64,000 nt of DNA. Origin: Mustelus asterias. Taxonomy: Eukaryota. Numbering within the stretch: position 1 is the first letter of the stretch; the number at the start of each line of letters is the position of its first letter. The notes beneath the pieces were generated by a model. It did no database searches. It was not told the origin of the DNA and worked only from the letters and a program-made list of their open reading frames with translations. The stretch lies in the NCBI RefSeq assembly GCF_964213995.1, contig NC_135821.1, forward strand, positions 46,128,001 through 46,192,000. Reading direction: 5' to 3'. Below are positions 9,501 to 44,719 of this stretch, in pieces. A program made the translations under genes and the position numbers.

Positions 9501-10096
9501 TTGCCCGATATATCGTCCCATTCTTTGTTGAAGCTTGTAGAAGCTGATGGTTTTAGGGAAATGAGGACAACTCATTACTGTTCCCATCCACTTACTGTAA
9601 AAGTAGCTGGGGAGTGAGTCCTAATGAATGTCAAATTAGCACATGGAATTTGTCGCTATAACGCCTGTAGGCACAATTACTTAGTTGCACTCAAAGGTCT
9701 CCCACAGTTCTCCGCTAGAAGATGAGGGACTAATATTGCAGAGGCAATCTCTTTACCTAAAGATACAATAAAATAGCACAGGCAGTGACAATGGAAGTTT
9801 TTTTAATTTACTCTTTGATGGAATGTGGGCATCACTGGCAAGGCCAGTATTAGTTGCCCATCCCGACTTGTCCTTGAACTGAGTGACTTGCCATACCATT
9901 TCAGAGAACAGTTAAGTGGGCCTGGAGTCACATGTAGGGCAGACCAAGTAAGGATGGCAGATTTCCTTCCCTAAAGGACATGTGAACCAGATTGGTTTTT
10001 ACAATAATTAGTGATCGTTTCATGGTCACCATTGTTGAGACTAGCGTTTAATTCCAGATTTATTAATTGGATTTAAATTCCACCCGCTGCCATTTT

Positions 10097-10449
10097 GGGT
10101 GGCACGATGGCACAGTGGTTAGCACTGCTGCCTCTCAGCATGAGGGCCTCGGGTTTGAATCCAGCCATGAGTGACTGTCTTTGTGGAGTTTGCACACTCT
10201 TCCTATATTGGCGTGAGTTTCCTCCGGGTGCTCTGGTTTTCTCCCACAGTCCAAAGATGTGCACGTTAGGTGGATTGGCCATGCTAAATTGCCCCTTAGT
10301 GTCTTGATACGTGTAGGGAGGATTAATGGAGTAAATATGTGGGTAAAAACATTGGGTTACAGGGACAGGGCCTGGTTAAGATGAGTTGGTGCAGACTCAA
10401 TGGGCTGAATGGCCCTCTTCTGCACTGTAGGGTTTTATGATTCTATGAT
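10097..10449 (+). mobile_element. HE1/V-SINE-type tRNA-derived SINE, nested in an older minus-strand SINE (~9805-10520)
   Basis: tggcacagtggttagcactg A-box head, gtgagtttcctccgggtgctctggttt V-type core, CR1-like tail ending in (attctatg). Confidence 0.85.
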
Positions 10450-34092: not shown

Positions 34093-35454
34093 TTAATCTC
34101 ACAGATATTTCAGGAAAAGTGCAGGCCGAAATGCCTCAAAGTTAAAAATTAATAAAGTATTTCATGTTCAATTTTCTTCTATAAATTACATTAAAACTAT
34201 GCAAATTGTGCTGTAGCATTAACACAAATACTGCTGGAAACTGATTTCCCATCACTGATCAAAGGTGATTTTTTAGAGAGTGAGAGAAAATCAGAATGTG
34301 AGTAGACCTCTGAGGGGGGAATAGTAGCCATATTCATAATCATACTCAGTGAAAGGGTTCAAAGAGGCACTCAAGCAAAGAAAGCATGTACACAGTTGAA
34401 CTGCAAGACAAGTACATCAGGGCACGGCACTGAAATGTGGGCTGTTAGTTTTCAGACAGAAATCTCTCAGTAAGACAAGGAGAGCCTGTCCAAATGACAG
34501 ATATGGCCTTCAGATAATGTAGGGAGGGGAACTCTGGAGTGTAGGTTTATTTATCTATCCGTGGTTCAATCTGAAAGAATTCATTAAATCAGACATCTGG
34601 ACATTGGAGAGGTATTTGATCCAGACTCACGCTCAGATGTTAAGGACAACAATTTGTAGCAGCAATGAATTTGGTCAGCGAACATGATTGAATCTTCATG
34701 CTGATGAGATATTATAATTAAGCAGGTGTGCAGCAGTGGTGATTGGTGTTTAACATTTTTATCTCATGTATGATGTAACTTTAATCAATAGTTGTGATTG
34801 GTAGAGATATCTCCTATATCTTGATTGGTATATGTTAATTACTTGGAATCGAATCTGAAAGCATATCTGCTTGTGCAATCCTGTGTCCTGGACTCTGGCT
34901 GGACACTAACTGGCTTTCCAGGGTCCTTGCCGTATAGCTTTTTTAAACTGCAGTTTGAAAAACTTTGTGACTTGGTCTGGCTACTTATAGGGAACAAAGT
35001 TGTACTAAATTTAGAAAGGCTGAACATTAAAAAGCCCCAAAAAACCTCCATCACCATTGTAAACTTTCTAGTATCCAGTAGCAGAGTATTATTAGCACAC
35101 ATGGGAAGAGGGCATTGCCCTGGCCTTCTAAAGTAGAAATGAGACATTCAAAGAGGAACTTGAAGGGGAAAAATAACTACAAACAACAAAGATAAATGTT
35201 ACATTGGCCCAAAAATTGTTGTAAAAGGTTAACCATCACAAATGACTGTCAATTACATTGGTATGTGTCCATGTAATGTTGATGGTATTTTGCCCTACAA
35301 GTAGGGGGAAGTATGAAATGGGAACAGTACAGCACTCTCAACAGAGCATTTGGGATCTGAATGAATGGGGTCAGCAATGCTGCACCTTCTGAACTACAGT
35401 AAGAAGTTTAACAACACCAGGTTAAAGTCCAACAGGTTTATTTGGTAGCAAATG

Positions 35455-35493
35455 CCACTAGCTTTCGGAACAGGCTGTCCCTTCGTCAGGTGG
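35455..35493 (-). ncRNA. Minimal type I hammerhead ribozyme-like motif (antisense arm)
   Basis: CCAC-CUGACGA-A-GGGAC-AGCCU-GUUCC-GAA-AGCU-A-GUGG on the minus strand. Confidence 0.65.
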
Positions 35494-35509
35494 CATGCAT
35501 TTCTCCACT

Positions 35510-35548
35510 CCACCTGATGAAGGGACAGCCTGTTCCGAAAGCTAGTGG
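35510..35548 (+). ncRNA. Minimal type I hammerhead ribozyme-like motif
   Basis: CCAC-CUGAUGA-A-GGGAC-AGCCU-GUUCC-GAA-AGCU-A-GUGG. Intact core, stem I CCAC/GUGG, palindromic stem III. Confidence 0.7.
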
Positions 35549-36119
35549 CATTTGCGACCAAATGAACCTGTTGGACTTTAACCTGGTGTTGTTAAACTTC
35601 TTACTGTGTTTACCCCAGTCCAACGCCGGTATCTCCACATCATGACTACCTTCTTAACTAACCATTCTGAAATGAACTAGATGATAAGATTGAAGAAGTT
35701 GAAAAGTGAGTTCAATGTGAAATAAGACACAGAAAGGAAAATAAAGAGAGAAAAAGTAGGATTGGATTGAGAGAGGGAAAACATATAGAAAAAATGTAAA
35801 ATACCAGTTTTACTGTCTAAGTAAAGAATCTTCACACTGCACGATACACTTAAACAGAGAGCGACACAGGAGATGCCATTTTTGTGAAGCTATAGAGCAA
35901 TGCATCTTAAACAGCAACTTCCCTTGTTCCACATTTAATCGCACTACTGCATCCACCTGAAGTTCCTGTGCCCTTTGATCAAAAGTACTGATGAGCACTA
36001 TCAGCCGTGCTGTTAATTGAATAACAATATTTGAGCTAGTATAATTCTTTTCTGACATTTGGCCAGAATCTTCTGGTCATTCATGCTGCTGGAATTCTCT
36101 GGTTCCACTGTAGTGAACA

Positions 36120-42289: not shown

Positions 42290-43935
42290 TCACATCAACA
42301 ATTTCCAGTTCCCCGGCCCCAACCGTCTCCTCTTTACCATAGATATTCAATCCCTCTGTCCCTCCATTCCCCGTAAGAAGCCTCACAACACCAGGTTCAA
42401 GTCCAACAGGTTTACTTGGTAGCAAATACCATAAGCTTTCGGAGCACTGCTCCTTCGTCAGATGGAGTGGAAATGTGCTCTCGTTTCCCATTCCCCACCA
42501 TGATGGCCTGAGAGCTCTCCATGTCTTCCTTAAACACAGGCCTGAACACTCCCTGTCCATCACCACTCTCCTCCATTTGGCTGAACTTGTTCTCTCAATG
42601 AACAATTTCTCCTTTAACTTGTCTCACTTCCTCCAAATAAAAGATGTTGCTATGGGCACCCCCATAATGCTACTTATGCTTGTCTCTTTATGAGATATGT
42701 GGAACTTTCTTTTTCCAGTCCTACTCCGCCCCCTCCCTCAACTCTTTCATCGGTGCATTGACAATTATTTTGGTGATATTTCATGTTCTTGTCTGGACCT
42801 GGAAAATCTATCACCTTCACTTCCAATTTCCGCCCCTCTATCACCTTCACACGGTCCAACTCTGACACTCCCTTCCCTTTCTTGACCACTCTGACTCCAT
42901 TTATAGCGATGGACTGTCCACCAGTATCCATTACAAGCCCACCGACTCCCACACCTACCTTAACTACAACTCTTCACACCCCACTCCATCCCATTCTCTC
43001 ATTTCCTCTGGCGCATTTGTTGCAATGACGCCACTTCTCAAAATGGCGCTGCTGATATGCCTTCCTTCTCCCTTCATTGTGATTTTCCATCCACTATAGT
43101 TGACAGGGCTCTCAACCATGTCTGACCCATCTCCCGTGCCTCACCCCTTCCCTTCCCTCCCAGAAGCAGCATAGGGTCCCCCTTTCCTCACTTTTCACCC
43201 CTCCAGCCTCCGCATTCCAAGGATCAGCTTCCGCCATTTCCACCAACTCCAGCATGATGCCACCTCCAAATACATCTTCCCCTCACTACCCCTGTCAGTA
43301 TTCTGTAGGGACCATTCCCTCGAGGATACCCTGGTCCACTCCTCTATCACACCCAACATCTCACCCCCTTCCCACGTTACCTTCCCATGCAAAATCTGCC
43401 CCTTTACCTTCTTCCTGCTCACCATCCCAGGTCCTAAACACTCCTTTCAGGTGAAGCAGTGCTTCATATGCGCCTCCTTCTAATCTGGTCGAATGCATTT
43501 GCTGCTCCCAATGCAGTCTACTCTACATCAGTGAGACCAAACGCAGACTGGGTGACCACTTTGTTGAACACCTTCGGTCCATCCGCAATCATGACCCAGA
43601 CCTTCCTTCACTTGCCACTTCAACACACCTGCTCTCCTGTCCATATGTCCATCGTTGGCCTTTTGCAATGTTGCAGTGAAGCCCAATACAAACTGGAGGA
43701 ACAACACCTGACCTAATGAGATGTTTACAGCCTTCCAGACTTAACACTGAGTTCAACGACTTCAGAGCATGAACTCTCCCCTCCACCTTCATCCCATTTC
43801 CATCTATGTATTTATTTATTTTAAATTTTAATTTCTTCCACTGTTTCATTTTTCATGCTGTCAGACCTGCTGAGATTTTTCAGCATTTTCTGTTTTTGTT
43901 TCAGATTCCAGCATCCGCAGTATTTTGCTTTTTAT
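42290..43935 (+). mobile_element. Degraded Penelope-like element (RT plus GIY-YIG endonuclease)
   Basis: LLFTIDIQSL, ELVLSMNNFSFN, VAMGT, degenerate RYIDD and LYISETKRRLGDHFVEHL (GIY-YIG), then the C-terminal KLEEQHL. Confidence 0.85.
42429..42465 (-). ncRNA. Minimal hammerhead ribozyme-like motif within a 115-bp insertion (42373-42487)
   Basis: CCAU-CUGACGA-A-GGAGC-AGU-GCUCC-GAA-AGCU-U-AUGG. The insertion is flanked by the 9-bp TSD ccattcccc. Confidence 0.65.
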
Positions 43936-44338: not shown

Positions 44339-44598
44339 CTGTGGAGATGCCAGCGTTGGGGTGGACACAGTAAGAAGTCTCACAACACTGGGTTAAAGTC
44401 CAACAGGTTTATTTGGAATCACGAGCTTTCGGAGTGAGTCTCACATTCCAACCATTATCTTGCAATTGTGTCTTTGTCTATATATGCCGTGTTTGTGAAA
44501 CCTACCCCTCCACTCACCTGATGAAGGAGCAGTGCTCCGAAAGCTCGTGATTCCAAATAAACCTGTTGGACTTTAACCTGGTGTTGTGAGACTTATTA
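44339..44598. mobile_element. Penelope-derived mini-insertion with inverted termini
   Basis: Inverted arms at ~44375-44435 and ~44535-44594. Exact 12-bp TSD ctatttcacaag at 44327-44338 and 44599-44610. Confidence 0.8.
44514..44550 (+). ncRNA. Minimal type I hammerhead ribozyme-like motif
   Basis: UCAC-CUGAUGA-A-GGAGC-AGU-GCUCC-GAA-AGCU-C-GUGA. Intact core, perfect stems I and II, and a UC cleavage site. Confidence 0.72.
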
Positions 44599-44719
44599 CT
44601 ATTTCACAAGGTTTATGGATGAACAGCCAGATGAAGTGAAGCTACATGAAACATGAAGCTGCTCTCAAATACTTTCATAAGAGATCCCAACAATGTTCAG
44701 GCAGGAAACAACAAAAGAA

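Follow-up and report, generated by a model that had tools for sequence, protein, structure and literature searches.

The 251-bp insert described here, which lies in a stretch of 64,000 nt from Mustelus asterias (the whole stretch is referred to as the window), works like a truncated insertion unit of an EN+ Penelope-like element (PLE) and, judged by its sequence, is one. It consists of a head-to-head pair of 5'-truncated pLTR ends, which were probably produced in one event in which both nicked strands of the target primed RT. This layout is already published, and dead stumps of this kind number tens of thousands, so that the insert is nothing unusual in itself; the value lies in the population of approximately 190,000 pLTR ends. 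How PLEs make the second strand and what role their weak hammerheads have are open questions in the available parts of PMC4209133 and PMC11167929, and both can be tested by counting such ends.

Structure of the insert

A repeat search of the window revealed two inverted arms of 98 nt (35396-35493 and 35510-35607), which are 97% complementary and spaced by 16 nt, and the insert region folds with -193.5 kcal/mol (z = -25; none of 200 shuffles was as good), which confirms the original prediction of a hairpin with arms of about 97 bp. A TSD of 13 bp had also been proposed; a direct repeat of 13 nt (35384-35396 and 35648-35660) is present, but it contains one mismatch and matches at 12 of the 13 positions. 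The 16-nt "loop" is made up of 13 nt of additional pLTR sequence, which is found in the right arm only, and a 3-nt junction that is unique among 27 aligned copies. Only three mismatches separate the two arms. The untailed arm is 99% identical to a direct copy of the same subfamily (L157) and the tailed arm is 96% identical to another pLTR copy (L179); the insert is therefore pLTR sequence and not an independent element. It is an inverted pair and a single unit, with no tandem arrangement and no promoter head. The features are listed in Table 1.

Table 1. Features of the 251-bp insert and its flanks (window coordinates)
Feature	Position	Strand	Description
Left TSD copy	35384..35396	+	13 nt; final A also matches the element; direct-repeat search
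Untailed arm	35397..35493	-	Inverted pLTR 3' segment, ends at the proximal site ~36 nt before the ATG
Minimal type I hammerhead	35455..35493	-	Predicted cut 35459/35458; motif scan
Junction	35494..35496	.	3 nt belonging to neither arm; comparison with parent pLTR
Tailed arm	35497..35647	+	pLTR 3' segment that begins 17 nt upstream of the core and reaches the ORF start
Minimal type I hammerhead	35510..35548	+	Predicted cut 35544/35545; motif scan and fold
Hammerhead stem I	35510-13/35545-48	+	
Hammerhead core	35514-20	+	Extra A at 35521
Hammerhead stem II	35522-26/35532-36	+	GAAA at 35537-40
PLE tail	35607..35647	+	~40 nt, on this end alone; ORF start codon 35642-35644
Right TSD copy	35648..35660	+	First 3 nt are shared with the ORF continuation

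The parent element

A Penelope origin had been proposed for the insert and is borne out by other loci of the genome, in which the same sequence continues into a pLTR and an ORF with RT and GIY-YIG. A 34-nt pattern taken from the right end has 2,188 matches in the genome and runs into a reading frame in about one third of 30 retrieved loci; two of eight extended loci contain an uninterrupted frame of approximately 890 amino acids between direct repeats 3.1 kb apart. Locus L064 has a full pLTR-ORF-pLTR arrangement with an open frame of 892 amino acids. Its protein matches RVT_1 with an E value of 6e-10, and its C-terminal 193 amino acids give a match to GIY-YIG above the cut-off, with an E value of 5e-5; no GIY-YIG match was reported with the whole protein as query. 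The pLTR is hence that of a one-ORF element with RT and, at its C terminus, GIY-YIG, as expected for an EN+ PLE, and the order of RT, linker and GIY-YIG in one ORF is that of the Neptune clade. A CX4CxxC linker was read in the L064 translation; it falls within the CX2-5CxxC pattern between RT and endonuclease that the accessible text of PMC8557442 gives as a mark of Neptune and Nematis and not of Poseidon. The Atlas neighbours of the protein are unnamed RT/GIY-YIG clusters. Going by these domains, both arms are the 3' end of the pLTR of an autonomous Neptune-type PLE, whose linker is shared with Nematis.

The genome-wide search for arm sequences suggested in the original prediction yielded copies with TSDs and a linked autonomous PLE (L064). 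The 23-nt core has 191,088 exact matches in the genome. The stem II variant of the window copy has 153, and 30 loci retrieved with this variant are mostly longer pLTR copies reaching the 3' end of the ORF.

A continuum of sizes and not a discrete family

The insert had been assigned to a discrete retrozyme- or SINE-like family, whose members would be transcribed as whole palindromes and mobilised in trans; copies of varying length were named as the observation that would speak against it. This is what was found: insertion lengths are continuous, centres differ and the ribozyme is incomplete or missing in many copies. An unselected sample was formed from the first 100 listed plus-strand core matches (96 arms from the first 2.7 Mb of one contig). 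An inverted core is located within 1.5 kb of 57 of these 96 arms, 46 of 96 are tailed, 70 of 96 span the whole ribozyme and 26 of 96 stop short of its 5' edge. The 52 TSD-supported pairs of the sample are between 123 and 1,398 bp long. Across the genome, the numbers of head-to-head pairs with a centre gap of 0-30, 31-60, 61-90 and 91-120 nt are 4,755, 3,042, 5,556 and 5,142, respectively, counted for gaps of up to 120 nt and with an anchor that excludes older subfamilies; the gap of the window copy is about 98 nt. Both ribozyme cores lie within 30 nt of each other in 6,827 pairs, and the centres among those listed are nearly all different.

Three observations agree with a discrete element. The best 40 of 3,493 candidates match the full 251 bp over nearly the whole length, one perfect centre is shared by 8 of 27 aligned copies, and the size class of the window copy forms a mode. 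However, the candidate list is ordered by likeness to the query, which shapes its top 40; the mode is only a broad one; and the recurrent centre is found on different arm haplotypes, which indicates a favoured joining site. Together with the range of lengths, the lack of a tandem arrangement or promoter head and the unique junction of the window copy, this makes a discrete element very improbable. Neither the fixed length and internal structure of a SINE or other non-autonomous element nor the direct tandem repeats of a non-LTR retrozyme, each with a hammerhead, were found. Non-LTR retrozymes resemble the insert in that they contain a type I hammerhead and are derived from or related to pLTRs (available parts of PMC7229834; bioRxiv 10.64898/2026.07.22.740005), but they form direct tandem repeats that give rise to monomeric linear and circular RNA, whereas the insert is an inverted pair flanked by a TSD (PMC7229834 and PMC6155905, as far as their text is available).

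A retrozyme-like array, which to judge from its sequence is derived from the same PLE, is present at L061:4320-5071 (G000:C1 near 152,232,000). It is a direct tandem of 3.5 copies, 99% alike, of a 214-bp unit consisting of the pLTR end with the hammerhead and approximately 58 nt of the ORF start.

The positions at which the arms end do not point to a sharp transcription start or splice site upstream of the ribozyme, as only a broad bump was observed, which corresponds to the size mode of the window copy: of the 72 arms at risk, 16 stop in the first 20-nt bin upstream of the core (0-19 nt), about twice the rate of the neighbouring bins (10-13%). A cap-like extra G was not evident at the arm ends. 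Every subfamily seen has a conserved AG or CA, preceded by a pyrimidine-rich stretch and located approximately 14-17 nt upstream of the core, that could function as a splice acceptor or initiator, and the antisense of stem I and the core resembles a splice donor in some subfamilies.

If transcribed, a duplex of 98 bp would be a substrate for Dicer or ADAR. Such a duplex and weak matches to Rfam miRNA models would suit a hairpin that the host has selected, for instance as a source of miRNA or siRNA; this can practically be dismissed, since the Rfam matches are far below the gathering scores, the insert is one of more than 18,000 similar short hairpins and its three arm mismatches are as expected for a young neutral insertion. 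ADAR scarring of the window copy, in which one of the three mismatches is A-to-G, was rejected.

One tail per insertion

In the available sections of PMC3846280 and PMC8557442, insertion units of EN+ PLEs are described as having an inverted, 5'-truncated pLTR copy at the 5' end, a palindromic junction, a tail of 30-40 bp at one end and a TSD, all of which are found in the insert. In contrast to these units, both of its arms are the last 100-150 nt of the pLTR and no ORF lies between them. None of the structural terms that apply to the insert was found in the available part of PMC12602865.

A second difference concerns the tail, which the same sections of PMC3846280 and PMC8557442 call "optionally" or "often" present at one side, whereas the rule is nearly absolute here. 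A TSD of at least 9 nt (mode 12-14) was detected in 212 of 241 candidate pairs, with one mismatch allowed; shuffled flanks reach 9 nt in 10% and 11 nt in 2% of cases. Among these 212 pairs, 210 have one end near the ATG and the other near -37; one of the other two is two-tailed and one is unclear. Two of the pair sets were chosen for the tail and a few loci are possibly counted in two sets, but the sets assembled without tail selection have exactly one tail in 51 of 52 pairs (chosen by the common core only), 43 of 43 and 18 of 18. Microhomology between target and template averages 1.5 and 1.3 nt, values which are biased upward by the definition of the TSD.

The closest described system is Poseidon_Ac of the green anole. 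According to the accessible text of PMC11167929, it likewise has two ends that bound the tail, a minimal hammerhead at the junction of pLTR and ORF, and a template that is mostly uncut. The Poseidon protein, a predicted dimer, nicks and extends both strands in vitro and starts at the two tail-bounding sites; its cut is placed 26 nt downstream of the ORF start and its RT start sites 111-118 nt downstream, whereas here the cut is located about 97 nt before the ATG and the ends are near -37 and 0. Since the start site did not differ between strands in vitro, the available part of that paper alone leaves a strict one-tail rule unexplained. The rule constrains the model of integration.

Origin of the inverted arm

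In the favoured sequence of events, the GIY-YIG endonuclease of the element would make staggered nicks about 12-14 nt apart. One target end would prime at the distal site near the ATG and give rise to the tailed arm; the other would prime about 37 nt further upstream and yield the untailed arm. Both cDNAs would stop early, in the window copy just upstream of the hammerhead, and would be joined by microhomology or short inserts. Most insertions would use one RNA or RNAs of one subfamily, and the two hammerheads would be passengers from the pLTR.

Priming of both target strands is favoured by the combination of one end near -37 with a tailed other end, and by the fact that either arm can be the longer one. 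Among 123 pairs, the untailed arm is longer by more than 5 nt in 38 and the tailed arm in 18, while the arms are within 5 nt of each other in 67, many of which come from sets chosen for symmetry. Some tailed arms barely exceed the tail and have an untailed partner of 100-270 nt. A copy cannot exceed its template, and the frequently longer untailed arm therefore favours two primed cDNAs, barring later central deletions; a later deletion across the centre of the palindrome could also explain why either arm may be the longer one.

The same Penelope origin is assumed by a second, unlikely explanation, in which a single cDNA folds back at a short palindrome and primes itself, and the product is resolved by endonuclease cleavage at the proximal site, as in the self-priming view given in the available part of PMC3846280. 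Many centres are perfect or near-perfect palindromes, and fold-back copying also yields exactly one tail. The likeness of the arms and their similar lengths are predicted by it too and count against priming of both strands: lengths are often matched, and the arms mostly have subfamily and private variants in common, with 0-1 diagnostic differences in 78 of 98 pairs as opposed to 14-41% of shuffled pairs. However, the untailed arm is more than 30 nt longer than its partner in 18 of the 123 pairs and the tailed arm in only 8, and the untailed arm is the one that ends exactly at the cut site in 8 of 30 loci (see below). Furthermore, the arms of a few pairs (L028, L128, L015, L018 and L175) differ at linked diagnostic sites; in L128 both bases of the first stem I pair differ between the arms, and in L028 five sites do. 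By their sequence, such differences would mean a second template or gene conversion.

Two insertions 1.8 kb apart, L087 and L088, have different TSDs and tails on opposite sides and share the same junction and a private change, possibly by local gene conversion. Several complex copies (L040, L043, L047 and L051) follow the ORF up to approximately +92 to +100 and then switch to pLTR sequence, perhaps at a third priming or jumping site.

Hammerhead ribozymes in the arms

The original prediction placed one hammerhead in each arm, and a motif scan confirmed both (+ strand from 35510, - strand from 35493), with CCAC, CUGAYGA, stem II, GAAA GC UA and GUGG. The predicted stem II of 5 bp stands, or has 6 bp if the next A-U pair is included; it is separated from the core by an unpaired A. 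The scan found five hammerhead-like patterns in the window, two of which are the arms of the insert. The motif has the features of a minimal type I PLE hammerhead, namely the core CUGANGA, GAAA, U16.1-H17 and stems I and II with covariation. It also shares a short stem I, an extra nucleotide before stem II, a G-C as first stem II pair and palindromic positions 15.2-16.2 with the minimal PLE hammerheads in the available part of PMC4209133, which mentions opposite-strand hammerhead pairs 100-700 bp apart as well.

The retrieved loci contain 254 motifs, which were searched for by the core itself. Position N17 is occupied by A, U or C in 251 of them; stem I opens with a C-G pair in 169 and with a U-A pair in 75. 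In 17 haplotypes, 95.4% of cells are paired and three pairs are changed on both sides; these pairing figures come from related sequences and are to be read as support and not as a probability. A search of the insert against hammerhead models, which had been proposed as a check, was negative: Rfam gave no hammerhead match, only sub-threshold matches to miRNA hairpins. Minimal variants probably fall outside the Rfam models.

The isolated arm is predicted to fold into stems I and II. Within the complete insert, stem I is predicted to form with a probability of about 1e-46 (+ strand), which bears out the expected competition from the long hairpin. Because of the head-to-head layout, transcription of either strand yields the complementary arm before the ribozyme, and both ribozymes are predicted to be trapped in the hairpin in read-through RNA. 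The claim that either strand yields a ribozyme thus holds for the sequence but, on the predicted fold, not for RNA of the whole element, and the window copy is unlikely to act as a ribozyme. It has no ORF, its ORF-derived sequence stops at about +9, and the copy is therefore most likely dead. Minimal PLE hammerheads cleave weakly and only as multimers, according to the accessible text of PMC4209133 and PMC6765202.

Chimeric ribozymes were seen at L161/L162 and L179, in which the 5' part and the part after the cut belong to different subfamilies and the switch falls in the GAAA-stem III segment.

A possible footprint of cleavage

For a single young subfamily, arms were counted by the base at which they start, on condition that the three preceding bases do not match. 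Arm starts at the predicted scissile bond are two to three times commoner than at two neighbouring offsets: 1,188 arms start at the predicted cut, 366 two bases upstream and 353 one base downstream, which become 2,816, 868 and 1,255 when scaled for the capturable share, and 1,915, 555 and 879 after subtraction of ambiguous or spurious classes, whose shares were taken in part from listings by eye. The excess refers to three offsets in one subfamily and is raw with respect to microhomology. All of 30 retrieved cut-site loci are true truncations, 22 in tailed and 8 in untailed arms. The 26 partner arms that could be measured extend no more than 2 nt past the cut, while 83 of the 96 arms of the unselected sample extend more than 5 nt past it; however, the -1 and +2 control sets also contain partners that end at or before +4 and +9, so short partners occur away from the exact cut site as well. 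The control and cut-site sets have two insertions in common. Among 50 listed junctions inspected by eye, 9 contain an arm that ends exactly at the cut, in three subfamily contexts. A peak at the cut site did not reach significance in a small unselected sample, where 7 of 213 arms end within 1 nt of it.

The addition of a non-templated nucleotide to ends at the cut site was considered, as a G precedes 39 of 100 listed matches by eye, and was rejected; in many of these, the G is the last base of a partner arm.

The majority of arms continue across the cut site. This agrees with the available part of PMC11167929, in which uncut RNA is the main template and no RNA reads end at the cut; the part of PMC4209133 that is available contains no in vivo evidence of cleavage either. 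The cut-site excess is a possible genomic footprint of cleavage in vivo, and a report of such a peak was not found in the open-licence literature. If the excess survives a full analysis, the ribozyme would act in vivo on a minority of templates. We tentatively consider, with slightly more doubt than confidence, that the stumps are a fossil record of RNA ends: a subset of the templates would be cut by the hammerhead in the germ line, both cDNAs would run off at or before the scissile bond, and both arms would be made by a paired enzyme that uses each of two start sites once. If true, the genome itself would provide evidence for in vivo cleavage by an animal Penelope ribozyme.

Other elements in the window

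A second head-to-head insertion, of an older subfamily and with a 14-nt TSD, is located at 44340-44600; its arms are approximately 160 and 61 nt long, and only one contains a whole ribozyme. At 42373-42471 (- strand), an untailed arm from a different subfamily stands alone and contains a complete hammerhead motif. An abundant dispersed repeat of 340 bp, which is unrelated to the insert, occurs at 10092-10448 and in about 12 other places.
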